This document shows positions 11,601 to 56,931 of a stretch of DNA of 64,000 nucleotides, in pieces. The position numbers and the translations under genes are program-made. The notes beneath the pieces are model-generated. The model ran no database searches. It worked only from the letters and a program-made list of their open reading frames with translations, and was not told the origin of the DNA. Numbering within the stretch: the stretch's first letter is position 1; the number at the start of each line of letters is the position of its first letter. This DNA comes from Eledone cirrhosa (Eukaryota): positions 1-64,000 of the forward strand of contig CAXHJY010001123.1 in the NCBI GenBank assembly GCA_964016885.1, written 5' to 3'.

Positions 11601-11795
11601 AGCGGCAAAATGGATTGGCAGTATCGGTAGTGGGTCGGACGCCATGTTTTGCAGCAAAGAGTTACGGCCCTTTATGATCTGAGTTCAAATCCCTCCGAGG
11701 TTAACTTTGTCTTTCATCCTTACGTGGTCGATACAATAAAGTACCAGTAATGCACTGGGTATTTGCTGGCGTTGTGCCAAAAGTAGAAACAATTA
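11601..11795 (+). mobile_element. SINE copy
   Basis: Family consensus match. Confidence 0.85.
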
Positions 11796-11802
11796 TACAT
11801 TT

Positions 11803-14693
11803 CACCACCACCATCACCACCACCACCGCCACCACTACCACCACCACCACCACCACCACCACCACCACCACCACCACCACCACCACTACCAGCACTACCA
11901 CCACCATCACCATCATCACCACCACCACCACCACCACCACCACCACCACCACCACCACCACCACCACCACTACCACCACCACCACCACCACCACTACCAG
12001 CACTACCACCACCATCACCATCACCACCACCACCACCACCACCACCACTACCACCACCACCACCACCACCACCACCACCACTACCAGCACTACCACCACC
12101 ATCACCACCACCACCACTTCCAGCACTACCACCACCACCATCAACACCATCACCATCACCATCACCATCTCCATCATCATCACCATCACCATCACCATCT
12201 CCATCACCATCACAATCACCATCACCATCACCATCTCCCTCACCATCACAACCACCATCACAATCACCATCACCATCACCATCACCATCACAATCATCAA
12301 CACCATCACCATCACCATCAACATCAACATCACCATCATCAACACCATCACCATCACCATCACCATCACCATCACCATCACCATCACCATCACAATCACC
12401 ATCACCATCACAATCACAATCACCATCACCATCACCATCACCATCTCCTTCACCATCACCATCACCATCACAATCACCATCACCATCACCATCTCCATCA
12501 CCATCTCCATCACCATCACCATCACAATCACAATCACAATCACCATCACCATCACAATCAACATCACCATCACCATCACAATCACCATCACCATCACAAT
12601 CACCATCACCATCACCATCTCCATCACCATCTCCATCACCATCACCATCACCATCACCATCACAATCACCATCACCATCACAATCAACATCACCATCACC
12701 ATCACAATCACCATCACGATCACCATCACCATCACCATCACAATCACCATCGCCATCACAATCACCATCACCATCACCATCACAATCACAATCATCATCA
12801 CCATCACCATCACCATCACAATCACCATCACCATCACCATCACCATCACCATCACCATCCCCATCTCCATCACCATCTCCATCACCATCACCACCACCAT
12901 CACCATCACCATAACCATCAACATCACCATCACCCCACCCTCACCATCAACATCACCATCAACATCACAATCACCATCAACATCACAATCACAATCACCA
13001 TCACCATCACCATCACCATCACCATCTCCATCACCATCACCATCACCATCTCCATCACCATCACCATCACAATCACCATCACCATCACCATCACAATCAC
13101 AATCACCATCACCATCTCCATCACCATCACCATCACCATCACCATCACCATCACAATCACCATCACAATCACCATCACCATCAACATCACCATCACCACT
13201 ACCACCATCACCATCACCATCTCCATCACCATCACCATCACCATCACAATCACCATCACCATCACAATCACCATCACCATCACAATCACAATCACCATCA
13301 CCATCACCAATCACCATCACCATCACAATCACAATCACCATCACCATCACCATCACAATCACCATCACCATCACCATCACCATCACAATCACCATCACCA
13401 TCTCCATCACCATCTCCATCACCATCACAATCACAATCACCATCACCATCGCCATCACCATCTCCATCACCATCACAATCACCATCACCATCACCATCAC
13501 AATCAACATCACCATCACCATCACAATCACCATCACAATCACCATCACCATCACAATCACAATCACCATCACAATCACAATCACCATCACCTTCACCATC
13601 ACAATCACCATCACCATCACCATCACCATCCCCATCTCCATCACCATCTCCATCACCATCACCACCACCATCACCATCACCATCACCATCAACATCACCA
13701 TCACCCCACCCTCACCATCAACATCACCATCAACATCACAATCACCATCACCATCACAATCACAATCACCATCACCATCACCATCACCATCACCATCTCC
13801 ATCACCATCACCATCACCATCTCCATCACCATCACCATCACAATCACCATCACCATCACCATCACAATCACCATCACAATCACCATCACCATCTCCATCA
13901 CCATCACCATCACAATCACCATCACCATCACAATCACCATCACCATCACCATCACAATCACCATCACAATCACCATCACCATCAACATCACCATCACCAC
14001 TACCACCATCACCATCACCATCACCATCACCATCTCCATCACCATCACCATCACCATCACCATCACCATCACAATCACCATCACCATCACAATCACCATC
14101 ACCATCACCATCACAATCACAATCACCATCACCATCACCAATCACCATCACCATCTCCATCACAATCACCATCACCATCACCATCACCATCACAATCACA
14201 ATCATCAACACCATCATCATCATCACAATCACCATCACCATCACCATCACCATCACCATCACAATCTCCATCACCATCACCACCACCATCACCATCACCA
14301 TAACCATCAACATCACCATCACCCCACCCTCACCATCAACATCACCATCAACATCACAATCACCATCAACATCACCGTCAACATCACCAGCAACATCACC
14401 ATCAACATCACCATCACCAGCAACATCACCATCACCATCACCATCAACATCAACATCAACAGCAACAGCAACATCAACATCACAATCACCATCAACATCA
14501 CCATCACCATCAACATCACCGTCACCATCACCATCAACATCACCAGCAACATCACCATCAACATCACCATCACCAGCATCATCACCACCACTTTAACATC
14601 AAACACATCAACAACATCAACAACATCACCAATAACAACAGAAGTGACATTATCAACAACAACAACAATAGTATCAACACTAACACCAACAAC
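11803..14693. repeat. (ACC)n/(ACCATC)n simple satellite with higher-order duplications
   Basis: Direct reading. The landmark CACCCCACCCTCACC recurs at ~12931, 13702 and 14320. Confidence 0.95.
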
Positions 14694-16079
14694 AAGTAAT
14701 TCCCAATAATTGCACACAGTGGCATAATAACCTGAAATTATTGATTTTTCTATTGATTAGGCACAAATCCAATTTCGTTTTCTTCGTTTTTTTTTTCATC
14801 GTGAAACGGATTTTTTTCATCGATCCTGAAAGAAAATTACAGCAAAAACTGACCCCAGTAACCTATAATTCGATCTGATATTAACCCTAACACTCCAGCA
14901 AAGACTGGACAAAGATTAATTTGTGTCACATTCTTGGCAAGGAATTAAACTTTAGAGTTTTATGTTCCTATTTCTGCGCTTTGCAAAAGTTAAATGAAGG
15001 CCAGTCTTATCCCGGTTTCGTGTGTACCACAGAGCTAGCTTTCAGCTGAGTGTACTGATGAAACGTGGAATAAAGTAATTAGCTCAGAGACAACATGTCA
15101 TCCAGCCTGAAAATGGAACCTTTGAGCCGAATAATTCAAACCACTTGGTGACGCACCTTTAGGGTTGTCGCAGTAATGTCCGTTAACAAACCCCCATTTA
15201 AATCTCCTTGCGGTGTGGAGGCAGCATGGAGGAATAGGTAAAGAGTTCGTTTCACAATCATTACATACTGGGTTCAAACTCCTTGCGTGGCGTCTTGCAT
15301 AGGTTTCATTTACCATAGCCTCGAGTTGAGCCAAGCATTGTGAGTAAAATTGAGTAAACGGAAACTATTTGGAATCCTATCAAATAGGTAGATATACAAA
15401 CACGATAGATAGATATACATCACACAGGATAGATATATATGTATGTATATACATATATATGTATACATACATATATATGTATATACACATATATGTATAT
15501 ATTAACAGATATATTTATGTATATACATACATATGTATATCTATATATATATATACATATCAGGCTCCCAAACTATGCTTCCGCTGCGAGAAAGGTTTGG
15601 CGCGACCAACTGGCCTGTCACTCCTCATAGCGGTGTCATCCAATCTCACAATGTAAATGTTGTTGGTGTTAGGAGTGCACCCAGCTGTAAAAAACGCGGC
15701 CAAATGTACAATCCCATCAGAGCAAGATACGGTGTGGCCAATCCTGGCCAGACTTTCTATTTCAAGTCTATTATTGTTGTTGATCTCAGTATTTGTACTT
15801 GTAATTCAAAGAATCAGCCTTGTCGCTCACTTTGTCATGCTGATTCTCCCCGAAAATTCGTTATGGGTACAAGTATCTATGTAACTTTCTCAGTACAAAT
15901 GTCTTGTAACTATCTCAGTACAAATGTCACAGAGAAGAAGAAAATAAAATAAATAAACAGATAAAATAAAAATGGCGTAGACATACAATACAACAGGAGG
16001 AACATAGTAGTACCACTGATGATGTTGCAGATGTGCACGAAATAACTTTGTTAAACTATATATATACAACAAAATATAA

Positions 16080-21931: not shown

Positions 21932-22229
21932 GAGTGCCTAGAAATACCGATGATGTGTACAATTCTTGACCACTCATAGAATGACAACAACAGGATCTAA
22001 GCCGACAGGCGAAGTATATCGATGTAAAAGGACAAGAATCAAGACGTATCTGAGGGCCTTGCGATTTTCAGAGTCAGGTTCGATGATCACACCGATCGTG
22101 CCTCGAGCTGGTTACTAGACAAACGATTGTAATATGTACAATAAATTCCATTCGTCGCAACACTGATTCTCTTTTTCTGTGATATCATCCACTGCTCTAC
22201 GCATACGGACGCTTTAAGCATCCAACACC

Positions 22230-22267
<38 letters not shown>

Positions 22268-22336
22268 AAAAAGAGATGAAATCGAAAATGCAACTGGAGT
22301 CTTATTTAAAAAAAATATATATATATTTATTTGGTT

Positions 22337-22374
22337 CCTTTACCGGTTTCGCAGTTCTTCTGCTTTTCAAAAGG
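22337..22374 (-). ncRNA. Minimal hammerhead, U3-A8 variant (intact)
   Basis: CCUU UUGAAAA GCAG AAGAA CUGC GAAA CCG GUA AAGG, with a palindromic ACCGGU stem III. Confidence 0.8.
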
Positions 22375-23227
22375 TGAGTTGAGATGGAGGGTCTGTGGTT
22401 TTTCTCACATCTGGTTGGTCTCTGAATGTTACTTGTTTTATATGGAAAAAGTGGCTCGAAATGCCAGGTTTTTCGAGAAGTAATTTGATTGGTTTGTCAA
22501 TAATTATAATAAATTTCGCGCCAGTTCGCGTTACAATAGTTCTTCAAGTAAGAGGGTGGGGGGGGGGGGGGGTTGTCACAGGTTGTTTTTTCATATATGA
22601 GTGTTTGAATTTCTTTTTACTTGAAAAAAGGAGGCTCACGAAGGCTTTTTTTGGGTTTGTTATAAATGAAATTATGGCTGTCACGTGAACATATTTTCAT
22701 TAAGTTTTTGTGCCCTTATTTGGAAATCCATTCTGTAGCCTTTTTAGAGAATTTTTTGATAAGTGAAAGATAATGGTCAAGAGAAAGGGATGGGAGAATT
22801 GTTCTGGTTCAGTGAATATGGTTAGTTCGCTGGGGTATCAGAATTCAGATTTTCTATTGAATAAAGAAAGTAAAGATATGTGTGTTTATTTGTGTGCTTG
22901 TGTGTGTGTGTGTGTGTGTGTTTGAATTTCTTTACTTTAAAAAAAGGTGGCTCACGAAGATTTTTTTTAATAAACGTGATTTGATTGGTTATAAATGAAA
23001 TTTGGCTGTCACGTGAACAAGTTTTCATTACATTTTTGCGCCCTTATTTGGAAAACTATTCTGTAGTCTTTATAGCGAATGTTATGACAATGGAAAGATA
23101 GTGGTCAAGAGAAATGGGATTGGGAGAATTGTTCTGGTTCAGTGAATATGGTTAGTTCGCTGGGGTGTCAGAGTTCAGATTTTCTATTGAAGTGAAGATA
23201 TGTATGTTTATTTGTGTGCTTGTGTGT

Positions 23228-23272
<45 letters not shown>

Positions 23273-23865
23273 TATTGGAAGATGATTCTATTAGTAGAAA
23301 TGGGGGAGGGAGTTGTGTGCGTGTGTATATGGGTGTTATGTGTGTGTGTGCAAGTATGTTAAGATGGAAAGAATATATATTTTGTGTGTGTGTATATATA
23401 TGTGTGTAGGAAAGTGGTTCTATTAGTAGAAATTAGTGTGTATTGGGTGTTATGTGTGTGTGTGCGAGTATGTTAAGATGGAGAGAATATATATTTTGTG
23501 TGTGTGTATATATATGTGTGTAGGAAAGTGGTTCTATTAGTAGAAATGGGGAGGGAGTTGTGGGTGTGGGGGTTGTTATGTGTGTGTATGGGTGTTATGT
23601 GTGTGGGAGTATGGTTAGCATGTTAAGATGAAGAGAATATATATATATATATATTGTGTGTGTGTGTATGTGTGTGTGTAGGAAAGTGATTCCTTTAGTA
23701 GGAATATTTTTGAATGAACATATTTTCCTTACTTATTGGTGTTTGCTGTTGTATTGTCAGTGCAAACGTATGTTAAGGTTTATTTAGTTCGGGTTTTTAT
23801 TTTCTAAAGTAGAAGGTGTTATGTGTGTGTGTGTATGTCATATTATGGTATTGTCATAATGTATA

Positions 23866-26166
23866 TTAAACCATATTTAATGTTGGTTTATATTTTTGAA
23901 TAAACATATTTTCCTTATTTATTCGCATTTGTTCTGTTGTATTGTTAGCGCAAAGGTAAAATGGGAAGACTTGGAATTTGGGTGTCTTATTACTTGCGCA
24001 AATGTCTAGATGTGCACTTAGTGGTATCTGTCTCGTGGTTGGATCTCGTAATTGTTGGCGATGAACTGTCATTCTGTTTCTGAGTGTGAGTTTAGTTTGT
24101 CCTATATAATCTTCATTGCATCCTTTACATTTAATGGCATAAAGTAGATTTTTTGATGAGCAAGTGAAGTGATTTTTTACAGTAAAATTTTGTCCTGATT
24201 TAAATGTATACGTGTTGCCTTCAATGAGGTGAGTGCAGGTTCCACAATTAGAGCGACCACATTTTTTGATACTTGGTTGTGGGTTTGTGGTAGGTAATTT
24301 GGCATTGGTGAGTAATGTTTTCAGTGATTTTGGTTGTCTTTTGCTTTTGATTATTTTGTGTGTTTCAAGGGCTTTTTTCATTCTTGGGTTTTGTTTTAGT
24401 AGTGGGATGTTATTGTGAATAGTGTTGTAAGCTTCCGCATTTCTTGGGTTGTGTGTTGAGATATATGATAGAATATTGGACGTACCTTGAATTTGTTTCT
24501 GTTTCCGTAATTCATCAATGCCTATTGCTTTAGCCCTTTCTATTCCATTATTTATTAGTAATAGTGGGTACTCTCTCTCGAGTAGAATTTCCTTTAATTC
24601 TTGAAGTCTTTTATTTCGCGTTTCATAATTGGAGACAATTGTGCAAATTCTTCTTGCTAGGTTAAAAGGAATGTTCGTCTTCCTGTGCTTTGGATGGTTG
24701 GAGGTGAATAGCAGATATTGTTTGGAATCTGTTGGTTTGTAGTGTATGTCAGTTTCGATATTTGTGTCTTTTTTTAAGATTAAGATGTCCAGAAATGGGA
24801 GTTGATCTTGGCTGTATTCCATTGTGAATTGGATGTGGTTATTGATGCCGTTTATTAAGTTTTTGAAATCCTTCAGTTGGTCGAGTGTGTGGGACCAAAG
24901 AATGAGGCAATCATCCAAGTAGCGTTTCCAATTCTCTGATAAATATTTGTGGAAGTTCAATCCGTATTTTGATTTGGACTGTTCATATATCTGGACTTCT
25001 AAGTATGCCATGACTAAGTTGGCATAAGTTGGAGCGGCTTTTGTACCCATCGCAGTCCCCAATATTTGCTTGTAAGTATTGCCATCGAAATCAAAAAAGT
25101 TGTTCTGTAGGATGAATTTTAATCCCTCGGTGATGAAGCTTTTTTCTATTCTGTCAGGTATCTCATTGGGATATTTCTCTAGCCAGAATCCTATTGCTTC
25201 TAGTCCGTATTGGTGTGGGATCGTTGTGTAGAGATTCACTACATCGAAAGACACAATAATGTTGTTGACATGTTTGGGGAGGTGGTTTAAGAGGTCCAGA
25301 TCGTCTCTTACAAGGCTTGGTATGTGTTTCAGTATTGGTTTCAGTAGTATGTCTATAAAGTTGCTCAATCTGTGTGTTTCACATTGTGGGCCCGCTACAA
25401 TTGGTCTTAATTTAAGGTCTGTGGGGTATTGTGTGTTCACGCAGGCTGAGGTGGATTGTTTACAGGCATCGTTGATTATTTTACACTTGTGGATCTTCGG
25501 AAGTCCGTAAAGGTTGCTGGTTTTGTATTCAAAATTTGTTAAATAATCGCGTTCCTTTTTAGTTAGGTCTTCCTGGTATCGATAAATCAGTGTATTTAAT
25601 TTGGTCATAATTTTTGATTGCTGGTAGTTTTTTACTCTTTCATAGTAATTAGTATTTTGTAAGAGAGAGAACATAGAATTTTTATATTTTTCAGCCTCCA
25701 TAATGACAACAGTACTTCCCTTGTCCGCTTCCTTAATTATAATGTCCGTATTGTTTTTTAGTTCATGGATAATCTCCCATTCCCTTCGACTCGTGTTGGG
25801 TTTGGGTTTAGGTTGCGGTAGTTCATGGTATGGGAAGGTAGCTATGTGGTCACAAAATTTGTCCAGAACTCTGTTTCTACCTTTTGTTGGGTTGTAGCTG
25901 CTTTTATTCCGTACAATTGATTCGTCGTTATTCTCCTTGTCAAAGAATTCCTCTGTGAGACGTAATTTTCTACAGAAGTGTGAGATATCGTCATTTATCG
26001 CGTTGGGGTTAGGGTATTGTGATGTTGGTGTGAATTTCAGACCTTTGGAGAGAATTTTTACTTGTTGGGCTGAGAGGTTTGTATTTGAAATGTTAATTAT
26101 TTTCGGTTTTTCAAAATCGGTTTGTGCCACCGGGTGTCGTGAGTCCTGTAGCCTTGGTCTAAAAAA
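23866..26166 (-). CDS. PLE reverse transcriptase plus C-terminal GIY-YIG endonuclease (-1 frame relative to ORF1)
   Basis: IKEADKG, LYGLPKIHK, LRPIV, SFDVVNLY, GTAMGT, RYLDD, LPFLD, CGRSNCGTC, LLYAIKC..C...YIGQT...R...H. Open from the slippery site to the stop. Confidence 0.95.
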   Translation of the reverse strand, partial: FFRPRLQDSRHPVAQTDFEKPKIINISNTNLSAQQVKILSKGLKFTPTSQYPNPNAINDDISHFCRKLRLTEEFFDKENNDESIVRNKSSYNPTKGRNRVLDKFCDHIATFPYHELPQPKPKPNTSRREWEIIHELKNNTDIIIKEADKGSTVVIMEAEKYKNSMFSLLQNTNYYERVKNYQQSKIMTKLNTLIYRYQEDLTKKERDYLTNFEYKTSNLYGLPKIHKCKIINDACKQSTSACVNTQYPTDLKLRPIVAGPQCETHRLSNFIDILLKPILKHIPSLVRDDLDLLNHLPKHVNNIIVSFDVVNLYTTIPHQYGLEAIGFWLEKYPNEIPDRIEKSFITEGLKFILQNNFFDFDGNTYKQILGTAMGTKAAPTYANLVMAYLEVQIYEQSKSKYGLNFHKYLSENWKRYLDDCLILWSHTLDQLKDFKNLINGINNHIQFTMEYSQDQLPFLDILILKKDTNIETDIHYKPTDSKQYLLFTSNHPKHRKTNIPFNLARRICTIVSNYETRNKRLQELKEILLEREYPLLLINNGIERAKAIGIDELRKQKQIQGTSNILSYISTHNPRNAEAYNTIHNNIPLLKQNPRMKKALETHKIIKSKRQPKSLKTLLTNAKLPTTNPQPSIKKCGRSNCGTCTHLIEGNTYTFKSGQNFTVKNHFTCSSKNLLYAIKCKGCNEDYIGQTKLTLRNRMTVHRQQLRDPTTRQIPLSAHLDICASNKTPKFQVFPFYLCANNTTEQMRINKENMFIQKYKPTLNMV

Positions 26167-27299
26167 TGATTTTTCTGGAATGTTTTTTCAATGGTATTAT
26201 TATATCTAATGGTATTTCCCCTGTTGTTGTGTGGTCTTGTATAGAAGTTTCGGACGTATTGAGGTTCGGTTTGTTGATAGTCCGGGTTGTAGATTTTGTT
26301 CCTTTGTGTGGGTTGGGATCTACGGTTTTGGAACAGGCTCTGTGTGGGCAGGGGTCTACGGTTTTGGAATAGGTTTTGTGTGGGTTGTGATCTGCGGATC
26401 AGGTCCTGCCTTGTGTTCGGGGATCTTTGGTTTTTGTTAGTAGGGTTATAGTTTTGTCTATGGTTTCTGGGATTATCGTTATAGTTTTGCTGGGGGTATG
26501 TTGGACGTTTTGTTACTTTTTTTGTTATTTGTTGTGCATGTGGTGTGTGAGTTTTAGTTTGTTTTAAAAATGGGTTACCTGTATGTTGTTCATTTTTGAA
26601 GTCCATTTCGTAGTTGTTGAACCAGGTGGCGTTTTTTTCCCATCGCTGGAGGGATGTTAGTTCTTCATCCTCACAGTTTTCTTTCCAAAGTTTTAGGGTT
26701 TTTTTGTAGAGTAGGCCTTCAGAGTGCTTTGAGATTTCTGTGTCCATCTGTTGGTCGAGTGACTTGAATTTTTCTTCGTTGGAGTTGGCTCTTAATCGCA
26801 ACAATTCTATTTCTGTTTTAAATTTTTCCAATGCCATCTTTTCTCTAAGTCTTTGTTGGTTTTCTGGTTCATTCGGGATGGGTTTTATTTGGAGTTTTTT
26901 GGGGAGGATGATTGGGGTAGAGTTTAGCCACTTTTCATATATGTCTGCCTTGCCATTATTTTTTAGGAGATTCCAAAGGGCGAATTTGCGGGCTGTGAGC
27001 TTTTGAGTCCATATGTTGATTAGGGTGTTTTTCACTGAGTGGACATCTCGTAGATTGGGTTCTAACGGTTGTTCCAGATTTTGGAGCATTGCTGTTTCAA
27101 TGGTTTCGAACAGCTTAGTTAATACTGGAGTAATATTCGTCTCTTGGGTATTTTCTGTTTCTTCGTGGGGTCCTTTTTTATAGATGTGTATTTGGTCCAC
27201 TTTCTTGGTCAAAATTGAGAGTTTAGAGGAAATCTCTTTGAGTTCATTTAAGATGTCCTGGTTCAGTGAGTTGTTGTTTTGTTGAGACTTTGGTGGCAT
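26097..27299 (-). CDS. PLE ORF1, 400 aa, coiled-coil N-terminal half and N/Q/R-rich repeat C-terminal half
   Basis: ATG-initiated uninterrupted ORF directly after the upstream pLTR. A homologous remnant exists in the second PLE. Confidence 0.85.
   Translation of the reverse strand: MPPKSQQNNNSLNQDILNELKEISSKLSILTKKVDQIHIYKKGPHEETENTQETNITPVLTKLFETIETAMLQNLEQPLEPNLRDVHSVKNTLINIWTQKLTARKFALWNLLKNNGKADIYEKWLNSTPIILPKKLQIKPIPNEPENQQRLREKMALEKFKTEIELLRLRANSNEEKFKSLDQQMDTEISKHSEGLLYKKTLKLWKENCEDEELTSLQRWEKNATWFNNYEMDFKNEQHTGNPFLKQTKTHTPHAQQITKKVTKRPTYPQQNYNDNPRNHRQNYNPTNKNQRSPNTRQDLIRRSQPTQNLFQNRRPLPTQSLFQNRRSQPTQRNKIYNPDYQQTEPQYVRNFYTRPHNNRGNTIRYNNTIEKTFQKNHFLDQGYRTHDTRWHKPILKNRK
26160..26166 (-). 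promoter_or_regulatory. Putative -1 ribosomal frameshift slippery site U_UUU_UUA
   Basis: CAT TTT TTA is in ORF1 phase. The -1 frame is closed by TGA at 26188-26190 and open from there through RT-EN. Confidence 0.75.
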
Positions 27300-27464
27300 T
27301 TTCGGTCTTCGTGTGGTGGGTATATATTAGAAAGTGAGGTTTATTTTACAAAATGAAAAATAACCGAGGTGTCCTACACGAGTGAAAGTATAAAGAAAAA
27401 GAGATGAAATCGAAAATGCAACTGGAGTCTTATTTAAAAAAAAAAAAAATATATTTATTTGGTT

Positions 27465-27502
27465 CCTTTACCGGTTTCGCAGTTCTTCTGCTTTTCCAAA
27501 GG
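27465..27502 (-). ncRNA. Hammerhead of the upstream pLTR (core U4G mutation)
   Basis: CCUU UGGAAAA GCAG AAGAA CUGC GAAA CCG GUA AAGG. Confidence 0.6.
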
Positions 27503-28947
27503 TGAGTTGAGATGGAGGGTCTGTGGTTTTTCTCACATCTGGTTGGTCTCTGAATGTTACTTGTTTTATATGGAAAAAGTGGCTCGAAATGCCAGGTTTT
27601 TCGAGAAGTAATTTGATTGGTTTGTCAATAATTATAATAAATTTCGCGCCAGTTCGCGTTACAATAGTTCTTCCAATAAGAGGGGGGGGGGGGGGTTGTC
27701 ACAGATTGTTTTTTCATATATGAGTGTTTGAATTTCTTTTTACTTGAAAAAAGGAGGTTCACGAAGGTTTTTTTTTGGTTGTTTATAAATGATACACATA
27801 CACACACACAATATATATATATATATATTCTCTTCATCTTAACATGCTAACCATACTCCCACACACATAACACCCATACACACACATAACAACCCCCACA
27901 CCCACAACTCCCTCCCCATTTCTACTAATAGAACCACTTTCCTACACACATATATATACACACACACAAAATATATATTCTCTCCATCTTAACATACTCG
28001 CACACACACACATAACACCCATACACACACACACAACTCCCTCCCCCATTTCTACTAATAGAATCATCTTCCAATACACACATACACACACACACACACA
28101 CATACACACACAGAAGCACACAAATAAACATACATATCTTCACTTCAATAGAAAATCTGAACTCTGACACCCCAGCGAACTAACTATATTCACTGAACCA
28201 GAACAATTCTCCCAATCCCATTTCTCTTGACTACTATCTTTCCATTGTCATAACATTCGGTATAAAGACTACAGAATAGTTTTCCAAATAAGGGCGCAAA
28301 AATGTAATGAAAACTTGTTCACGTGACAGCCAAATTTCATTTATAACCAATCAAATCACGTTTATTAAAAAATCCTTCGTGAGCCACCTTTTTTTAAATT
28401 AAAGAAATTCAAACACACACACACACACACACGCACACAAGCACACAAATAAACACACATATCTTTACTTTCTTTATTCAATAGAAAATCTGAATTCTGA
28501 CACCCCAGCGAACTAACCATATTCACTGAACCAGAACAATTCTCCCATCCCTTTCTCTTGACCATTATCTTTCACTTATCAAAAAATTCTCTAAAAAGGC
28601 TACAGAATGGATTTCCAAATAAGGGCACAAAAATTTAATGAAAATTTGTTCACGTGACAGCCATAATTTCATTTATAACCAACCCCCAAAAAGCCTTCGT
28701 GAGCCTCCTTTTTTCAAGTAAAAAGAAATTCAAACACTCATATATGAAAAAAACAACCTGTGACAACCCCCCCACCTTATTTGAAGAACTATTGTAACGC
28801 GAACTGGCGCGAAATTTATTATAATTATTGACAAACCAATCAAATTACTTCTCGAAAAACCTGGCATTTCGAGCCACTTTTTCCATATAAAACAAGTAAC
28901 ATTCAGAGACCAACCAGATGTGAGAAAAACCACAGACCCTCAACTCA

Positions 28948-28985
28948 CCTTTTGAAAAGCAGAAGAACTGCGAAACCGGAAAAGG
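28948..28985 (+). ncRNA. Hammerhead of the inverted pLTR (cleavage triplet mutated to GAA)
   Basis: CCUU UUGAAAA GCAG AAGAA CUGC GAAA CCG GAA AAGG. Confidence 0.6.
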
Positions 28986-29116
28986 AACCAAATAAATATA
29001 TATATTTTTTTTAAAAATAAGACTCCAGTTGCATTTTCGATTTCATCTCTTTTTCTTTATACTTTCACTCGTGTAGGACACCTCGGTTATTTTTCATTTT
29101 GTAAAAAAAACCTCAC

Positions 29117-29842
<726 letters not shown>

Positions 29843-29857
29843 ATATATATATATATA

Positions 29858-30190
29858 TTTCAAAGTAAGGTTTTCTAATATATCCCACATGGGTAAAAAT
29901 ATAGGAAAAAGAAGTTAAAAATGTAATTGGGGACTTTAAGAAGGTTTATTTACAATTCTTTATAACTTTAGTGGTTTCGCAAGTTTTATGATTTTCAAAA
30001 GTTAAAAGAGATGGAGAGATGTGTGGTTATGCTGACTTGTAACTAGCCTGATGCGAGTGTCAAGTCAGCATAACCTCACCTACCTCCATCTCTTTTAACT
30101 TTTGAAAATAATAAAACTTGTGAAGCTAGTAACGTTATAAAGAATTGTAGACCTTCTTAAAAACTCCAATCGTATTTTCAACTTCTTTTT

Positions 30191-30195
<5 letters not shown>
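29858..30195 (-). mobile_element. Older, diverged fold-back pLTR (UUGAAAA-type hammerhead remnant)
   Basis: Imperfect arms 29901-30039 and 30061-30195. AACUU UUGAAAA...GAAA...AAGUU on the minus strand. Shares CUCCAUCUC with the 22-29 kb element. Confidence 0.6.
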
Positions 30196-30245
<50 letters not shown>

Positions 30246-30250
<5 letters not shown>

Positions 30251-30452
30251 AACCAGTAAGACCCCGACAGCTGAGCTCAAGCCGTTTCGACGGCTAATTC
30301 TGGACTCAATATTTGAGTCCAGAATTAGCCGTCGAAACGGCTTGAGCTCAGCTGTCGGGGTCTTACTGGTTCCTATTACCCACTCTACTACCTCAAGTAT
30401 TGAGTACTTTGGTGCGTTATGGTCCACCTGGTTCCTTACCACATTTCCTTCG
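30246..30452 (+). mobile_element. Fold-back solo fragment (131-bp perfect palindrome plus tail)
   Basis: Arms 30246-30309 and 30313-30376. Relatives at 47735-47922, 41453-41491 and 63525-63590, all next to (TA)n. Confidence 0.75.
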
Positions 30453-30515
<63 letters not shown>

Positions 30516-30519
<4 letters not shown>

Positions 30520-31293
30520 CCGGCGTTGCTCGGGATTTGCTATAGGGTTCTTATATATTTGATATATATTTATCCTTATCGAACCTCGTGAAATAAATAC
30601 GTTTGTTTATATTTTGTTATTGTGTATGCAAAAATATCTGTCCATAAATATATAATTATATATATATATATATATTAAAATAACAGACTAAAGTTTAAGC
30701 AAAGAATCACTGCTTTCACCCTTAACGGGATATTCTACCTAAAAGCAGTATGAAGTACATACACTAAGACTAATTGATGTAATCTTTGGCCTTGTTTGTT
30801 TATATTTTGTTTTTGTGTATGCAAAAATATCTGTACACGAATATCTATATTAAAATAACATATTAATGTTTAAGCAAAGAATCGCTGCTTTCAACCTTAA
30901 CGGGATCTTCTTAAACTAAAAAAAATAATCTGGAAAACAGGAAGACGATACTTTGGTTCGTGAAGACGTTCCCTGGCATAAGAATATATATACACACACA
31001 CACACTGATCGCGTCATAATGACGTAATGCAGACAGTCAGGCATACAGAGAGATATTATGAAGGCGCGACGTCATATCTATGTATCTATCTAAAAAGAGA
31101 AAATCTAAAGAGAAAGAGATCGCTAAATCGCCTAATGCAGTCCCTAGGGCATTGAAAATTTGAAATTTCTTTTGCTCAAAACACTTCCGGGGCCATACGA
31201 GTTACATGTATAAAGTTTGAAAAAAACCGGTTGGGTATATCTCGAGTTTTAGGGAAACAGACACACAGACATCCTTTGTTTTATATATATAGA
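30516..31293 (-). mobile_element. Non-autonomous Helitron with nested fragments
   Basis: Minus-strand 5' end A|TCTATATATATAAAACAAAGGATGTCTGTGTGTCTGT. 3' hairpin CCCGAGCAACGCCGGG. No terminal CTRR is visible before the (TA)n tract. Confidence 0.62.
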
Positions 31294-31315
31294 TATTTAT
31301 ATATATATATATACA

Positions 31316-31456
31316 CTCCAGATACATATTTGTGCACAGGTATAGAATTTCTGGACACACTCCAGATACATGTGTACAGTTTGTGCACAGGTATAAATTT
31401 GTGCACAGGTATACAATTTCTGGACACCCTCCAGATACATATTTGTGCACAGGTAT
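31316..31456. repeat. Short minisatellite (CTCCAGATACATATTTGTGCACAGGTAT...)
   Basis: Three to four degenerate units. Confidence 0.8.
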
Positions 31457-31683
31457 TCCAATACGGCAAGGCCTAATGGATCCCCCTTGCAGTACGTACA
31501 ATCTGGACACACACACACACACCTTGGTATTATGCCAATACTATATATCATTTCACACCTTTTATTATTAAGGTTTTTGATGTTCTATTGAGAGAATCGA
31601 TTTTACTGAAAATATCGAATAATGTACACCATTTTAACAGAAATAAATACTGATCCACCCACCCCCACACACACACACACATT

Positions 31684-31787
<104 letters not shown>

Positions 31788-31971
31788 CACACACACATAC
31801 ACACGCGTATATTAACATACAAAGAGACATACAAAGAGACATACACACACACACACACACACTTCTCCGTATAAGACAAGAGCTTAAAAAATATCTTTTA
31901 ACATGCAAAAATATCCCCCCACACTTACAGACACATTCCTACTGACCATCCCTCTACCACGAATTACTCAG

Positions 31972-32006
<35 letters not shown>

Positions 32007-32149
32007 TCTTAATAGGCATTTGAACTGTCAACAGGCTGCGGTTCGCACACACATTCCTGCTGACCATTATCACAACAACGAACCTCTTTACTACTACTAC
32101 TACTACACACACACACACACACATATTTGTTGTGAAAGACTTATTTCTC

Positions 32150-32518
32150 AGTCAGCCGACACAAACCTACATTTGGCGCAAAATCAATTTTTTACATTCA
32201 CATGACCTCTACCGATCAATCAAAATTGTTTTGACCACAAGAATTTTTGCAACACGAATTTGCGCAAAACTTATTTTAATACCGCTGGAGCCACTTTTTT
32301 AACATAAAAACAGGTAGAATTCCCAAAACTAATCAGATCAGAGCAAACATCACGGACGCTCTATCTCAAAATTATTTTTGAAAAGCATTAGAAATGCGCA
32401 ACCGGTAAAACTTAAAACCAAAACCTAATATTAACCAATACTATTACTAATTCTCACTTATTCCTAATTAAACTATTTTTCACTGTGAACAATTTGTCAG
32501 CATTTTCTATTCCGTTTA

Positions 32519-32520
<2 letters not shown>
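32150..32520 (+). mobile_element. pLTR remnant of another Neptune-like family
   Basis: GAGCCACTTTT motif at 32288, then a decayed hammerhead UUU UUGAAAA GCAU UAGAA AUGC GCAA CCG GUA AAA at 32375-32410. Ends at (TA)n. Confidence 0.62.
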
Positions 32521-32558
<38 letters not shown>

Positions 32559-32819
32559 TACAATAACAGAGATAGTTTAAAGCTAATCTCTGACTGGTAA
32601 CCATCTCACTCAACAAACATTAGGTTATATTTTAATATAAACCCAATTTAAGTGTTTGGGGTGCTAATAATATGTATTATGTGAAAAAGCCAGTTGTATT
32701 ATTTTATGAGATATAATTAAAGTTAAAATATATCTCTCTTTCCAAACAATTGTTTCATTATAAGTTTTCTACAATCTCGGAGAATATTTCCAGTTTATGT
32801 AGAAGCCTAAAATACATTC

Positions 32820-32870
<51 letters not shown>

Positions 32871-33040
32871 TATAGATAGGTAAATATACACGGGTGTGTA
32901 TGATTGTGTATAGAAGATTATATTAATAAGAGGAATTCCAACTTTGTCTGATTTACTCGTTTTATTTACAATCCTTTAAAATATATATAATGGTATTATA
33001 ATGAAATAGTATGATAGAATATTAAATTCTAAGTGTTAAT

Positions 33041-33079
33041 TGAACAAGTACTTTCATGCTTTCGCAATCTTCAGGTTCA
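33041..33079 (-). ncRNA. Minimal hammerhead ribozyme
   Basis: UGAAC CUGAAGA UUGC GAAA GCAU GAAA GUAC UU GUUCA, with a palindromic AAGUACUU stem III. Confidence 0.8.
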
Positions 33080-33453
33080 TGATATGTGGTGACAGTCGAG
33101 TTTGTAATTTTCAACTGTAATGAGATGGGTAAATTTCCTACCTTTTATACATTTTATACAGAGAAAAGTGGCTCCAGAATGCAAAGCCCTGTAAACTGTA
33201 TTTCGACCAATCAGTGTGTAGTTTCACTGAATTACTACAGCTGATTGGTTTAAGCGTCACGGCTGGTTGAGCATGCTAACGACCAATAGTCATATCCAAC
33301 GTATCAATTGTTTTGCTTTTTGAAATGATGAAAATAGCATTTTCTATTAATCATCACCATCAACATCACTTTTATTATTATTATTATTGTTGTTGTTGTT
33401 GTTGTTAGTGGTCGTGGTCATAGTGGTAGTAGAAGTAATACCCCTAGGCGTTA

Positions 33454-35767
33454 TTATTGTTCATTTAGCTTGGGTTTGAATTTATCAATAAAATTCTTTT
33501 CTTTGATTTTTCTCTTGATTTCACTTGGGCTGTGTAATTTGTAGAATGGGAATATTATAAATATTCCCTGACCACATGTTGCCAGGTGGCCGCTTAGGGG
33601 TATCTGACGGACATTTGGGTCTCTGATTTGTTGACGGTGTACCCGTGCACGTTCCGATAGTGCATTTCCAGTTTGACCGACATATAGTTCTTCACAATTC
33701 GGGCATTTAATGCAGTAAATTAGATTTCTGCTTTTGCAGTTCATATTTGCATTTGTGAATATTTTTCCAGTTTTTGTTTTCATATATTGACCGGCGTGTA
33801 TGGATTGACATGTGCCGCATCGATTATCATTGCATTTAGATACAGTGAATGATTGGTCTTTGTTGTTAAGGTCAAACTTTGCTTTTGTTAGCAATTGCTT
33901 CAAATTTTTTGGCTGTCTTTTACTAAGAGTCAAAGATCGATCTCTGATTAAGCCTTTTAATTCATTACTTTGAGCAATGATCGGTAGGTTTGCTTTGGCA
34001 GTGTTGAATATATTCTGGTGACATGGGTTGTGTGTCATTATAAATGGTATGACCAGTTCTTGGTTTCTTCTTCCTTGGGTTGTTCTAAGTTGTTGTATAG
34101 GTATTTTTATAGCCCGCTGTATGCCATTTTCTATAAGTAGAGATGGGTATTTTTGTTTGAGCAAAAATTCTCTTAGTTCTGTTAGGCGTTTGTACCTGGT
34201 ATTCGTATCTTCTACAATGGTACAAATTCTTCTGGCTAGGCAGTATGGGATGTTGCGTTTTGTATGAGGTGGATGGCACGACTTAAAATTCAGATATTGA
34301 TGGGTGTCTGTGTGTTTATAATATATATCCGTGGTAATGGTGGTGTCGTTTTTGATTATCATTATATCTAGGAATGGTAATTTGGTCCTACTCATCTCTT
34401 TTGTGAATTGGAGAGATGGGTGTAGGTTATTCAGGAGGATATTGAACTCATCCAGAGTATCTAGAGATTCTGTCCAGATGATGAAACAGTCGTCAAGGTA
34501 TCTCTTCCAAGATTTTTCAATGTACTTTCTAAAGTCAGTACTATATTTTTCCTCTATTTCTTGGTAGAGTTGTTGTTCTAAGTATCCCATTACAGAGTTC
34601 GCGTAAACGGGAGCAAACTTCGTTCCCATCGCTGTGCCTCTAATTTGGATGTAATTCTTTCCATTGAAGAAGAAAGTGTTGTTTTCCAGAATAAGTTTAA
34701 CTGCGTCTAATATAAATGGCGCTGTGAATCTAATGGGAATCACTTCTCTATGTTTTTCCACCCAGTATTTAACCGCCTTTATTCCTAAATCATGTGTAAT
34801 GTTGGTGTAAAGGCTTACCACATCAAAACTGAGTAGAAGTGAATTCGTTTCCGTGGTTTTGGGAAGATGGGACAGGAAGTCGATATCATCCCGGATGAAA
34901 CTGGGTGTGTGAATACATAGTGGTTTCAAAATAATGTCAGCAAAATTGCTTAGACGGTGAGTGGGACATGTTGGACCAGCTATAATAGGTCTAAGTTTTA
35001 AGTCTTTTGGGTGTAATAATTTAATGTACTCACTGTTTTGTTCTCTTACTGCCAGTTGTATTTCTTTTGACTTGTGAACTTTCGGTAGGCCATACAGGTT
35101 GCTGGGTTTTGGCTCAAAATTGGTGATGTAGTCTCTTTCCTTATCAGTAAATGAGTTGTGGTATTTTGAAGCCAGGTTGCTGATCTTCTTCATGATGTTG
35201 TGGTCTATATTTGACGGTATTTCATGATAGAATGTTGTGTCTTTCAGTTGTTCCTCAACCAAATCCTTGTAGTATTCAGTATCTATTATAACAACTGCAC
35301 CCCCTTTATCTGCTTGTTTAATAATTATTGTTTTATCATTTTGTATACGTTTAAGTGCAGACATTTCTGATTTGTTAATGTTTGGCCTAACATTAGTATT
35401 ATGTCTAAGAGGAAATTTAGACAGGATGTCAATGTATTGGTCGAGATAGATATTTCTTCCTTTTGGCGGAGTGAAATTTGATTTATTCTTTACTAGTCAT
35501 TCATCACTCTCATTATTTTTATCAGCGAAGAATTCTACAAGACGCAATTTTCGACAGAAATTCTTGGGTATCCTCCTTCAGTTCTTGGTGGTTGACTGTT
35601 GGAGTCGGTGTGAATTTCAGTGCTTTTGACAGAATTTGCATTTCATCATTGTCAAGATCTCTTTTAGATAAATTAATTATTTTAGGATCTACGTGTACAG
35701 CTGTTTTGGGTATGTTTCCTCCTGGAGTTTTTCTTTTTCCGGTTTTTGTTGTCCTGACGTTAAAAAA
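33454..35767 (-). pseudogene. PLE RT-GIY-YIG ORF (636-aa open core; N-terminal part has a +1 frameshift at ~35560 and a TGA at ~35498)
   Basis: KIINLSKRDLDNDEMQILSKALKFTPTP...IKQADKGG, YGLPKVHK, RYLDD, CNDNRCGTC, LIYCIKC..C..LYVGQT. Confidence 0.92.
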
Positions 35768-36400
35768 TGGATTTTTCTCTGTTCAGGATTTATATTCCTG
35801 TTGGTGTTCGGTTGATGAACTTTTGGTCGTGATATTATATTTAGTTTCGTTATGTATTTTGTCCTATTTTTGGTATTCTGTATATTATTTTTCTTCCTGT
35901 TAGCATTATTTTTAACAATCTGGGAAAGTGACCTAGGTTTGCTTTCAGGTTTAGATCGTTTTTTCGTCCAGTTTCTTGTGGGCAATCTCCGTTGAGATCT
36001 TGAGAGTGATCTGGTTATTCTACGTTTTGTTTCCACATTCCTTGTTGGTAGTCTCTGTTGAGATCTTGAGAATGATCTCCTGGTTTTACTACTTCTCATG
36101 GTCTGGTCAAAGGAATACCTATCGTGTTTGTGCTTTTTGTTCATGTTGTGTGCGATAGGGTGTTTTTGTAGAAAAAGCGAAGAGTTATTACCGTAGTTCT
36201 TCTTTGATTCAAGGTAAGGTGAGTGTTTGTGTTGGCACGTGTTCTGGCGTATGTTGTGTTGATGAGATTGTCCACTTTTAATGCTTTTTCTCAGGGTTCC
36301 AGAGTCTTTACCGTAATTTGCAGCATATTCATCGAGAAATAATTGTTTCTGCTGCCATATCTTTCTTGATTTGTTTTCTTCTTTTGAGATATCTCCGATC
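35689..36400 (-). pseudogene. 5'-truncated ORF1 of the second PLE
   Basis: W..DISKEENKSRKIWQQK aligns with WKENCEDEELTSLQRWEK of the first ORF1. Arg/Ser-rich repeats RSQQRLPTRN and RSQRRLPTRN. Confidence 0.75.
35761..35767 (-). promoter_or_regulatory. Putative -1 frameshift slippery site U_UUU_UUA (second PLE)
   Basis: CAT TTT TTA is in ORF1 phase. The -1 frame opens after TGA at 35783-35785 and leads into KIINLS...LKFTPTP. Confidence 0.75.
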
Positions 36401-36410
36401 CAAAAGAAAT

Positions 36411-38028
36411 ACAAAAGAAATACAACTGGCAGTAAGAGAACAAAACAGTGAGTACATTAAATTATTACACCCAAAAGACTTAAAACTTAGACCTATTATA
36501 GCTGGTCCAACATGCCCCACTCACCGTCTAAGCAATTTTGTTGACATTATTTTGAAACCACTATGTATTCACACACCCAGTTTCATCCGGGATGATATCG
36601 AATTCCTGTCCCATCTTCCCAAAACCACGGAAACGAATTCACTTCTACTCAGTTTTGATGTGGTAAGCCTTTACACCAACATTACACATGATTTAGGAAT
36701 AAAGGCGGTTAAATACTGGGTGGAAAAACATAGAGAAGTGATTCCCATTAGATTCACAGCGCCATTTATATTAGACGCAGTTAAACTTATTCTGGAAAAC
36801 AACACTTTCTTCTTCAATGGAAAGAATTACATCCAAATTAGAGGCACAGCGATGGGAACGAAGTTTGCTCCCGTTTACGCGAACTCTGTAATGGGATACT
36901 TAGAACAACAACTCTACCAAGAAATAGAGGAAAAATATAGTACTGACTTTAGAAAGTACATTGAAAAATCTTGGAAGAGATACCTTGACGACTGTTTCAT
37001 CATCTGGACAGAAGCTCTAGATACTCTAGATAAGTTCAATATCCTCCTGAATAACCTACACCCATCTCTCCAATTCACAAAAGAGATGAGTAGGACCAAA
37101 TTACCATTCCTAGATATAATGATAATCAAAAACGACACCACCATTACCACGGATATATATTATAAACACACAGACACCCATCAATATCTGAATTTTAAGT
37201 CGTGCCATCCACCTCATACAAAACGCAACATCCCATACTGCCTAGCCAGAAGAATTTGTACCATTGTAGAAGATACGAATACCAGGTACAAACGCCTAAC
37301 AGAACTAAGAGAATTTTTGCTGAAAACAAAAATACCCATCTCTACTTATAGAAAATGGCATACAGCGGGCTATAAAAATACCTATACAACAACTTAGAAC
37401 AACCCAAGGAAGAAGAAACCAAGAACTGGTCATACCATTTATAATGACACACAACCCATGTCACCAGAATATATTCAACACTGCCAAAGCAAACCTACCG
37501 ATCATTGCTCAAAGTAATGAATTAAAAGGCTTAATCACAGATCGATCTTTGACTCTTAGTAAAAGACAGCCAAAAAATTTGAAGCAATTGCTAACAAAAG
37601 CAAAGTTTGACCTTAATAAGAAAGACCAATCATTCACTGTATCTAAATGCAATGATAATCGATGCGGCACATGTCAATCCATACACGCCGGTCAATATAT
37701 GAAAACAAAAACTGGAAAAATATTCCCAAATGCAAATATGAACTGCAAAAGCAGAAATCTAATTTACTGCATTAAATGCCCGAATTGTGAAGAACTATAT
37801 GTCGGTCAAACTGGAAATGCACTATCGGAACGTGCACGGGTACACCGTCAACAAATCAGAGACCCAAATGTCCGTCAGATACCCCTAAGCGGCCACCTGG
37901 CAACATGTGGTCAGGGAATATTTATAATATTCCTATTCTACAAATTACACAGCCCAAGTGAAATCAAGAGAAAAATCAAAGAAAAGAATTTTATTGATAA
38001 ATTCAAACCCAAGCTAAATGAACAATAA
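36411..38028 (+). pseudogene. Inverted partial RT-GIY-YIG copy
   Basis: Starts at KEIQLAVREQ. A 1-nt insertion near 37323 splits it into the 359-aa and 194-aa ORFs. Confidence 0.92.
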
Positions 38029-38410
38029 TAACGCCTAAGGTATTACTTCTACTACCACTATGACCACGACCACTAACAACAACAACAACAACAACAACAA
38101 CAATAATAATAATAATAAAAGTGATGTTGATGGTGATGATTAATAGAAAATGGTATTTTCATCATTTAAAAAAGCAAAACAATTGATACGTTGGATATGA
38201 CTATTGGTCGTTAGCACGCTCAACCAGCCGTGACGCTTAAACCAATCAGCTGTAGTAATTCAGTGAAACTACACACTGATTGGTCGAAATACAGTTTACA
38301 GGGCTTTGCATTCTGGAGCCACTTTTCTCTGTATAAAATGTATAAAAGGTAGGAAATTTACCCATCTCATTACAGTTGAAAATTGCAAACTCGACTGTCA
38401 CCACATATCA

Positions 38411-38449
38411 TGAACCTGAAGATTGCGAAAGCATGAAAGTACTTGTTCA
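38411..38449 (+). ncRNA. Minimal hammerhead ribozyme (mirror of 33041-33079)
   Basis: Same sequence on the + strand. Confidence 0.8.
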
Positions 38450-38563
38450 ATTAACACTTAGAATTTAATATTCTATCATACTATTTCATTATAATACCAT
38501 TATATATATTTTAAAGGATTGTAAATAAAACGAGTAAATCAGACAAAGTTGGAATTCCTCTTA

Positions 38564-38657
<94 letters not shown>

Positions 38658-39330
38658 TATATATATATATATATATGTATACTGTATTTGGCTAAATCAT
38701 AATTTATTATGTCTTTCTATCTCATTTCTAGAGAAAATAAAATACACATTACAACTCTTGTCACTCACCGAGTCCTCTCAACAACTTTGGATCTTTTACA
38801 CGCACACATATACGCACACACTCACATATACAAACACATATATACACATACATACACATACATATATACTCACACATATTTACACACATATATATATATA
38901 AACGGGAAAAGACATGTACATATAATTATATTATTGCAGTTTAATCTGATTTTCGCTTTCGCTATTTCCGTATTATTTCATTTATTCTTGTTTTGATTAA
39001 AGTATTTGCAAAAACATATTTACTCCAATCTTTACATATTTATAAACATTTATTCTTTAAGAGTATCTACATTTTAAATATGTTTCTATTCTCAAAACAT
39101 TGAAATTTTCTATATTTTCGTTACATTTATATTTAAGTTATACATGTATATTTTTTACTGCATTTGGTTATGATATTGTAATTTATTTTATTTATTTATT
39201 TTATTATATGTATATCTATACTATATTTATTCATACTAAATAATTACGATTTATTCTATTTGGTTTGTTTTAACATGTTAATTGGTTCAGTTCTTGCGTT
39301 TGTGTTTGTATTATGTTAACATAGAGTAGA

Positions 39331-56279: not shown

Positions 56280-56445
<166 letters not shown>

Positions 56446-56505
56446 AATCGAAAATCCAACTGGAGTCTTATTTAAAAAAAAAAATATATATATATTTATT
56501 TGGTT

Positions 56506-56543
56506 CCTTTACCGGTTTCGCAGTTCTTCTGCTTTTCAAAAGG
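56506..56543 (-). ncRNA. Minimal hammerhead, U3-A8 variant (intact)
   Basis: Same sequence as 22337-22374. Confidence 0.78.
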
Positions 56544-56618
56544 TGAGTTGAGATGGAGGGTCGGTGGTTTTTCTCACATCTGATGTGAGAAAAACCACAG
56601 ACCCTCCATCTCAACTCA

Positions 56619-56656
56619 CCTTTTGAAAAGCAGAAGAACTGCGAAACCGGTAAAGG
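56619..56656 (+). ncRNA. Minimal hammerhead, U3-A8 variant (intact)
   Basis: CCUU UUGAAAA GCAG AAGAA CUGC GAAA CCG GUA AAGG. Confidence 0.78.
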
Positions 56657-56931
56657 AACCAAATAAATATATATATTTAAAAAAAAAAAATAAGACTCAA
56701 GTTGCATTTTCGATTTCATCTCTTTTTCTTTATACTTTCACTCGTGTAGGACACCTCGGTTATTTTTCATTTTGTAAAAAAGACCTCACTTTCTAATATA
56801 TATATATATATATATATAAATAACTGTTTCTATTTTAGGCACAAGGCCAGCAATTACCCAGTGCATTACTGGTACTTTATATATATAAATAACAACGCCA
56901 TATATATATATATATATGGTGTGTTGTTATT

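Follow-up and report, generated by a model that had tools for sequence, protein, structure and literature searches.

Two Penelope-like elements at this locus encode their reverse transcriptase (RT) in the −1 frame relative to an upstream open reading frame (ORF1), and the question is whether this break of phase is a programmed frameshift signal or an accident of copy decay. The window, i.e. the whole stretch of 64,000 nucleotides that was analysed, is AT-rich, microsatellite-rich eukaryotic DNA, and both elements lie on its minus strand. Element 1 is intact. Element 2 is a dead copy, 5′-truncated and carrying one extra base and one stop. Their RT proteins are 48% identical. The relevant features are as follows.

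26097..27299, minus strand: ORF1 of element 1, intact, 400 aa, with a helical core and a disordered N/Q/R-rich tail
23866..26187, minus strand: RT, CX4CxxC linker and GIY-YIG of element 1, in the −1 frame, 773 codons open, first Met at codon 163
26160..26166, minus strand: slippery heptamer T TTT TTA of element 1
35761..35767, minus strand: slippery heptamer T TTT TTA of element 2 (CAT TTT TTA, His-Phe-Leu), −1 phased
35689..36405, minus strand: 3′ part of ORF1 of element 2, about 238 codons, ending in the stop TAG (35691-35689); the inversion has removed the 5′ end
35522..35782, minus strand: start of the −1 (RT) frame of element 2, with a 91 nt overlap with ORF1; the first AUG comes after the conserved KIINLS motif
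35497..35560, minus strand: two lesions of element 2, one additional base near 35558 and an RT-frame TGA at 35499-35497
33454..35496, minus strand: remaining RT and GIY-YIG endonuclease of element 2, 680 aa open (Pfam RVT_1 E 3e-6, GIY-YIG E 3e-6)
36412..38571, plus strand: inverted copy of the 3′ 2.16 kb of element 2, 98.7% identity (blastn)
33045..33079, minus strand: hammerhead-ribozyme-like motif in the 3′ terminal region of element 2 (pattern with paired stem I; twin at 38411 on the plus strand)

The ORF1 of element 2 is broken off at about 36405 by the inverted copy of the element's own 3′ part. The hammerhead pattern gave no match for element 1, and the Rfam hammerhead models gave none at E ≤ 1 in 22000-39000, a region where Rfam at this threshold returned sub-threshold miRNA-type matches only, none of them at either junction. 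Other repeats populate the window. Direct and inverted copies of the 5′ terminal region of element 1 flank this element and recur near 56.5 kb (22261-23515, 27321-29129, 56432-56822). Between the two elements lie long near-perfect inverted repeats flanked by (TA)n (30251-30371, 29537-29668, 29995-30105), for which Rfam gave sub-threshold hairpin matches. A region of about 3 kb (11701-14709) with several frames open on both strands and a GC skew of −0.99 is probably a tandem repeat.

The initial annotation had reported a His-Phe-Leu slippery site in element 2, followed by a −1 frame homologous to the RT N-terminus, and the same site at the equivalent place of the other element. Both observations proved correct, including the coordinates. 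On the minus strand, ORF1 of element 2 reads AAA ATC CAT TTT TTA ACG (K-I-H-F-L-T) with the heptamer at 35767-35761, and the identical heptamer of element 1 is found at 26166-26160. The −1 frame of element 2 opens past a TGA at 35785-35783, and the ORF1 stop (TAG) is 23 codons beyond the Leu; in element 1 it is 20 codons past the Leu. The −1 frame of element 2 (...PFFNVRTTK...VDPKIINLSKRD...KALKFTPTP) runs into the RT N-terminal motif and matches both the RT N-terminus of element 1 (tblastn, 44% over 55 aa, E 1e-7) and an HMM of the RT N-terminus (E 3e-16). The truncated ORF1 itself matches the ORF1 family profile (hhalign probability 95.4, E 1.8e-8; HMM E 2.6e-9). A plain DNA alignment of the junctions of the two elements does not bring the heptamers into register. 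Since the 9-mer CATTTTTTA is by itself no rarer than expected by chance (3 occurrences in the window versus 2.68 expected), the argument is carried by the phase of the heptamer, its position and its conservation.

We therefore turn to the junctions of related elements. RT-based scans gave 91 loci, 75 from metagenomes and 16 from bacterial assemblies. The latter are probably host contamination, a hazard of a kind noted in the available text of PMC8557442; the entries filed under names of bacterial symbionts or MAGs (P0021, P0041, P0048, P0063, P0120, L076-L091) are probably host DNA. The ORF1 family and the RT start were both present in six of the 91 loci (L001, L002, L005, L008, L013 and L077); L002 consists of two identical tandem junctions, and in L008 ORF1 is broken farther upstream. 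In all eight DNA junctions, two from the window and six from public contigs, the RT occupies the −1 frame, and the overlap contains a phased U UUU UUR. The heptamer is U UUU UUA in seven and U UUU UUG in one (L077). There is one phased U UUU UUR per ORF1 frame, inside the RT overlap, in each of seven frames (L008 left out), and the phase and place of the heptamer are not due to chance. Because two stops shut the −1 frame of L001 right up to the heptamer, so that the frame opens exactly there, and the entire overlap of L005 is 13 nt, the site is pinned to the heptamer. Common to the eight junctions are two ORFs that overlap in −1, a phased heptamer that is conserved, and an RT frame with no usable AUG. 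In a distant ninth element (L023, RT about 31% identical) the upstream frame ends with D-R-F-L on T TTT TTG. A quick RT tree places all the U UUU UUR elements that it holds in one clade (support 99), where they make up 7 of the 10 rows; the other three are contigs that end before the junction, L008 and L013 are absent from the tree, and L023 sits on a long branch. Three scans of viral contigs and one metagenome scan with ORF1 gave no matches.

The heptamer also leaves a footprint in the ORF1 proteins. The ORF1 profile retrieved 770 clusters (50% identity) at E ≤ 0.001, the best 150 of which are 57-553 aa long; a search with a broad ORF1 alignment gave 7 proteins, all already in the set. From the 154 proteins of the ORF1 set, 49 were put aside (16 without the end of the core, 33 with a tail shorter than 90 aa) and 105 were scored. 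Phe-Leu occurs within the last 50 aa in 83 of these 105 homologues, as x-Phe-Leu 10-40 residues before the stop, against a mean of 9.3 and a maximum of 19 in 2000 shuffles. The reversed Leu-Phe is found in 8/105, and Phe-Leu in the preceding stretch in 0/100. The residue before Phe-Leu is H, S, R, P, N, Y, D, L, G or F, all of which can be encoded by NNU (83/83). K, E, Q, M and W, none of which has a codon ending in the U that begins the heptamer, never occur there (0/83), whereas they make up 21% of the tail background. Hence, the footprint is that of a nucleotide motif, U-UUU-UUR, and not of a peptide. The 22 tails lacking Phe-Leu comprise four with Phe-Phe only and 18 with neither; several of the 22 look truncated or decayed. 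Two complete-looking ORF1 proteins (P0157 and P0164) have D-Y-F-R where relatives have D-F-L, and may use another slippery sequence.

Comparison of ORF1 ends with RT starts gave four protein pairs that are codon-compatible in the −1 frame and none in the +1. The initial annotation had set against its own reading the possibility that families encode an in-frame fusion, and this finds little support: no fused ORF1-RT-EN was found among the best 120 of 509 RT homologues (478-803 aa, for an allowed range of 425-1353) or among the best 150 of the 770 ORF1 homologues (at most 553 aa). The in-frame ORF1-RT chimeras detected were two, both short and ending early: P0170, which reads through the site as FFF, and P0270, which lacks the junction.

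These patterns make it likely that RT and endonuclease (RT-EN) are made as an ORF1 fusion by programmed −1 frameshifting on U UUU UUA. Most ribosomes would reach the stop 10-40 codons past the site and release the ORF1 protein of about 400 aa. A minority would move back by one nucleotide while tRNA-Phe and tRNA-Leu occupy the heptamer, giving the predicted junction peptides H-F-L-N-V-R in element 2 and H-F-L-R-P-R in element 1, where the fusion would have about 1,140 aa. The expected outcome is a surplus of ORF1 protein relative to enzyme similar to that of gag-pol.

The best surviving alternative is separate translation of the RT, whether ribosomes re-initiate once ORF1 has terminated or start internally at an AUG or near-cognate codon in the overlap; the U-rich motif would then be a protein motif or serve to couple the two. 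The overlap does contain a −1-frame AUG in some families (P0013, P0014 and P0043) and in close relatives of element 1, element 1 has a GUG at that place, and the called start is upstream of the conserved xxN[LIM]S motif in 55 of 120 RT homologues. We keep re-initiation as a minor rival because of these overlap AUGs and upstream starts. Yet in 8/8 DNA junctions the first AUG of the RT frame lies inside or after the motif, leaving none ahead of it (codon 163 in element 1), as do the called starts of the other 65 homologues, some of which may be cut by contig ends. Furthermore, the −1 frame of L001 and L005 opens 0-3 nt before the heptamer, and a protein motif fails to explain why the residue before Phe-Leu always has a codon ending in U (83/83) or why TTT TTR is found in 8/8 junctions. 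We regard separate translation as unlikely. As a separate observation, a D-x-x-W motif occurs a few codons past Phe-Leu, at variable distance, in several members (P0001, P0002, P0004-P0006, P0130, L002, L013, and 26121-26132 on the minus strand of the window), and its Trp codon yields AUG, GUG or CUG in the −1 frame.

The two frames could instead be joined in the RNA, by an intron or by slippage of RNA polymerase on the T6 run adding one U. Introns are known in Penelope-like elements, according to the Fig. 1 legend of PMC8557442, and P0170 reads FFF through the site into the RT, as a longer run of T would give. Against such joining, both frames stay open around the heptamer even in overlaps of 13 nt, and the run has just six T and ends in R at the codon phase that tRNA re-pairing requires. 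We regard joining at the RNA level as very improbable.

Element 2 is itself a decayed copy, in which a further break of phase and a stop lie within 270 nt of the heptamer, and we used sequencing runs to separate the state of the copy from that of the family. Four runs (family contigs of X1, X4 and X5, raw reads of X19; four of the 21 listed, chosen with element 1) were mapped on 35050-36410. The TGA at 35499-35497 is missing from the family at a depth of 13876/13876 (X1), 42/46 (X4) and 3443/3505 (X5), and in 138/142 raw reads of X19. The extra base near 35558 is missing from family contigs in 2127/2134 (X1), 31/31 (X4) and 1799/1959 (X5); it is missing in 0/25 raw reads of X19, but there the coverage reaches 0 at 35545. 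Only two indels attain a 10% share in the four runs, neither within the T6 run. A frequent substitution is found at 35770, 3 nt upstream of the heptamer of element 2; the substitutions listed are 40 of 192, and there may therefore be others inside the heptamer. Because nearly all family contigs lack the lesions and no indel in T6 attains that share, both lesions are private to this copy and the −1 junction appears to be the state of the family. That a homopolymer assembly error or the random decay of one long ORF produced the junction is scarcely credible given the same break at the same motif in independent assemblies, the counts of ORF1 C-termini and the lack of a full-length fusion among the homologues examined. 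The argument for selection made in the initial annotation is thus upheld by the eight DNA junctions, the 83 of 105 ORF1 C-termini and the family reads.

Programmed frameshifting usually relies on a downstream RNA structure, and we searched the junctions for such a stimulator. Folding of the 75 nt past the heptamer gave z scores of −0.2 for element 1 and +0.65 for element 2 relative to shuffles. Values below −2.5 were obtained in only two of the eight junctions, L001 (z −3.1) and L005 (z −2.6), which have clear hairpins. A scan for simple H-type pseudoknots found none in 6/8 junctions and none exceeding shuffles in the other two. In neither window element was a 3′ hairpin or pseudoknot found 5-9 nt downstream. 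There is no 3′ stimulator common to the clade: some families have a hairpin and none is detectable in the window elements. The initial annotation had also pointed to a downstream CAGGAC...CCGG kept by both elements. It is indeed present in both, 11 and 26 nt past the heptamer in element 1 and 4 and 18 nt in element 2. It is not conserved across the clade, because CCGG occurs in 2/8 junctions and.AGGAC in 4/8, at unequal spacings. With no associated structure either, it was discarded as a common stimulator.

Other signals are restricted to few junctions. Pairing of the 30 nt past the site with the next 2.5 kb exceeds shuffles in one of eight (L002, 0/30). A stem enclosing the slippery site is found in three: element 2 (6/200 shuffles), L002 (0/200) and L013 (5/200). 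Its arms are GUCACGCC...GGCGAGGAC in L002 (1305-1352) and L013 (2102-2149), and UCCUGA...UCAGGA in element 2 (35755-35790, minus strand); covariation of this stem among the three sequences was not significant. The GC content of the 30 nt past the site is higher than that of the RT region in 7/8 junctions, only slightly so in element 2.

We also measured the distance between the slippery site and the ORF1 stop. It is 10-40 codons from the Leu in all 83 proteins, never less than 10 and exactly 10 in 24 of them, and the peptides between Leu and stop are unrelated among the distance-10 proteins. Farther on in that frame the stop frequency is 0.065 per codon (31/480), hence about half of unconstrained cases would be expected to stop within 10 codons. 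Among the DNA junctions the distances are 10 (L008 and L023), 12, 12, 17, 19, 20 (element 1), 23 (element 2) and 1 (L005). The two junctions with distance 10 have no 3′ hairpin; the one with distance 1 has a hairpin.

According to the available text of PMC7544199, a ribosome that queues behind another one at a stop is located about 30 nt upstream. Since such a queue would put the follower just as it leaves the slippery codons, the ribosome terminating at the ORF1 stop could act as the roadblock and stall the next one on the slippery site, with no RNA structure required. We consider this idea doubtful. On the quick tree (79 rows), 22 of 23 distance-10 rows fall in one clade of 35 rows, and element 2, like three relatives, has a distance of 23. 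The ORF1 stop of each window element falls on RT codons where the conserved motif begins, and high GC content of the stretch would by itself make early stops scarcer. In the collision literature, no title among the matches listed (titles only) concerned a −1 signal driven by a queue at a stop. We do not claim a periodicity of 10, 20 and 30 codons in the spacing of the stop, which is clustered on the tree and, in the window, overlaps codons of the RT motif. If the queue idea were true, enzyme output would be set by how densely ribosomes load the RNA and how fast they terminate.

The ORF1 protein is predicted by AlphaFold2 (65 sequences) to form long helices (pLDDT 93-98 at residues 81-250), followed by a tail that is disordered beyond about residue 260. 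The 65 members have no Pfam family in common. Foldseek gave no fold match at E ≤ 0.001, and the best VIA-align hits (Z up to 8.7) were generic helical bundles. Atlas feature scores against Gag-like clusters reach at most 0.83, a level that provides a lead only. The basic tail and the analogy with other systems suggest that ORF1 is probably an RNA-packaging or chaperone protein, with a putative role as an RNA-binding oligomer.

Both elements encode a Penelope-type RT followed by a C-terminal GIY-YIG, for which the Pfam match is above the cut-off while that of RVT_1 is just under it. Element 2 further shows features of endonuclease-bearing (EN+) Penelope-like elements, a hammerhead pattern in the terminal region and an inverted partial copy. 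Canonical EN+ elements have a single ORF (Craig et al. 2021, PMC8557442, available text), and the accessible part of PMC6431247 describes elements that have RT and EN in one ORF, or two ORFs and no EN. The clade differs in that it is EN+ with a separate ORF1 of about 400 aa, lacking a Pfam family, and a conserved −1 overlap; the separate ORF1 is present in 8/8 junctions. A CX2-5CxxC linker and CCHH residues in the endonuclease characterize Neptune and Nematis (PMC8557442, available text), and C643, C648, C651, C687, C690, H709 and H726 are invariant in 38 of our sequences. By eye, the motifs look closer to Neptune1_Ap than to Nematis in the supplementary alignment, the tree being without named references; Neptune is paraphyletic in the tree described in PMC8557442. 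We describe the elements as a two-ORF, EN-bearing, Neptune-like clade.

A frameshift after ORF1 is already known in some Penelope-like elements: according to the Fig. 1 legend of PMC8557442, a frameshift with a pseudoknot can set ORF1 apart. In the available text of PMC12602865, a Neptune from killifish has two ORFs that do not overlap, and no frameshift is reported. The accessible parts of PMC3905857 and PMC5408684 mention esterases in Penelope- or Neptune-like elements, and that of PMC3846280 holds nothing relevant. A limited search of the Penelope literature, which does not establish absence from print, found no description of the heptamer in EN+ elements. What is new is the breadth of the evidence, together with an ORF1 stop at least 10 codons downstream, about one ribosome length, in 83 proteins. 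Our elements share with other two-ORF Penelope-like elements a coiled-coil-type ORF1 upstream of a Penelope RT, joined to it, in our case probably, by a frameshift. Athena/Terminon elements, attributed to Arkhipova et al. 2017, are reportedly two-ORF Penelope-like elements with a frameshift. Athena/Coprina are EN− and telomeric, with stretches of telomeric repeats at the 3′ end. The window elements have a GIY-YIG endonuclease instead, and no pseudoknot was found.

The −1 frameshift of HIV-1 gag-pol uses the heptamer U UUU UUA and has the structural ORF upstream of the enzymes. Our elements share the order of structural protein and enzyme and the heptamer, often with G as the next base: in 62 of 83 ORF1 homologues the next residue has codons that start with G. 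They differ from HIV-1 in having no LTRs, protease or integrase, in an ORF1 without match to a Gag family or fold beyond the lead-level Atlas scores, and in the lack of a stable hairpin past the site in 6/8 junctions.

The RT scans also revealed a second clade (L054-L060, L062-L066 and L073) with a different ORF1, of up to about 430 codons, in −1 overlap with the RT. Its junctions carry a phased G GGU UUU/C with the ORF1 stop 0-1 codon later, in 13 of 15 loci (not L074 and L075); examples are at L063:2180, L058:1753 and L055:2141. Most single folds have a hairpin 4-9 nt downstream, none of them individually significant, and the consensus fold is empty. The G GGU UUY clade may represent an independent frameshift signal.

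These results describe a large clade (770 clusters) with an unannotated ORF1 family and a likely retrovirus-like control of the ratio of ORF1 to enzyme. Annotation pipelines would call its intact copies broken and their RTs truncated. The clade also provides a natural series of U UUU UUA junctions, mostly without a classical stimulator, with which it becomes testable what else could drive −1 frameshifting.
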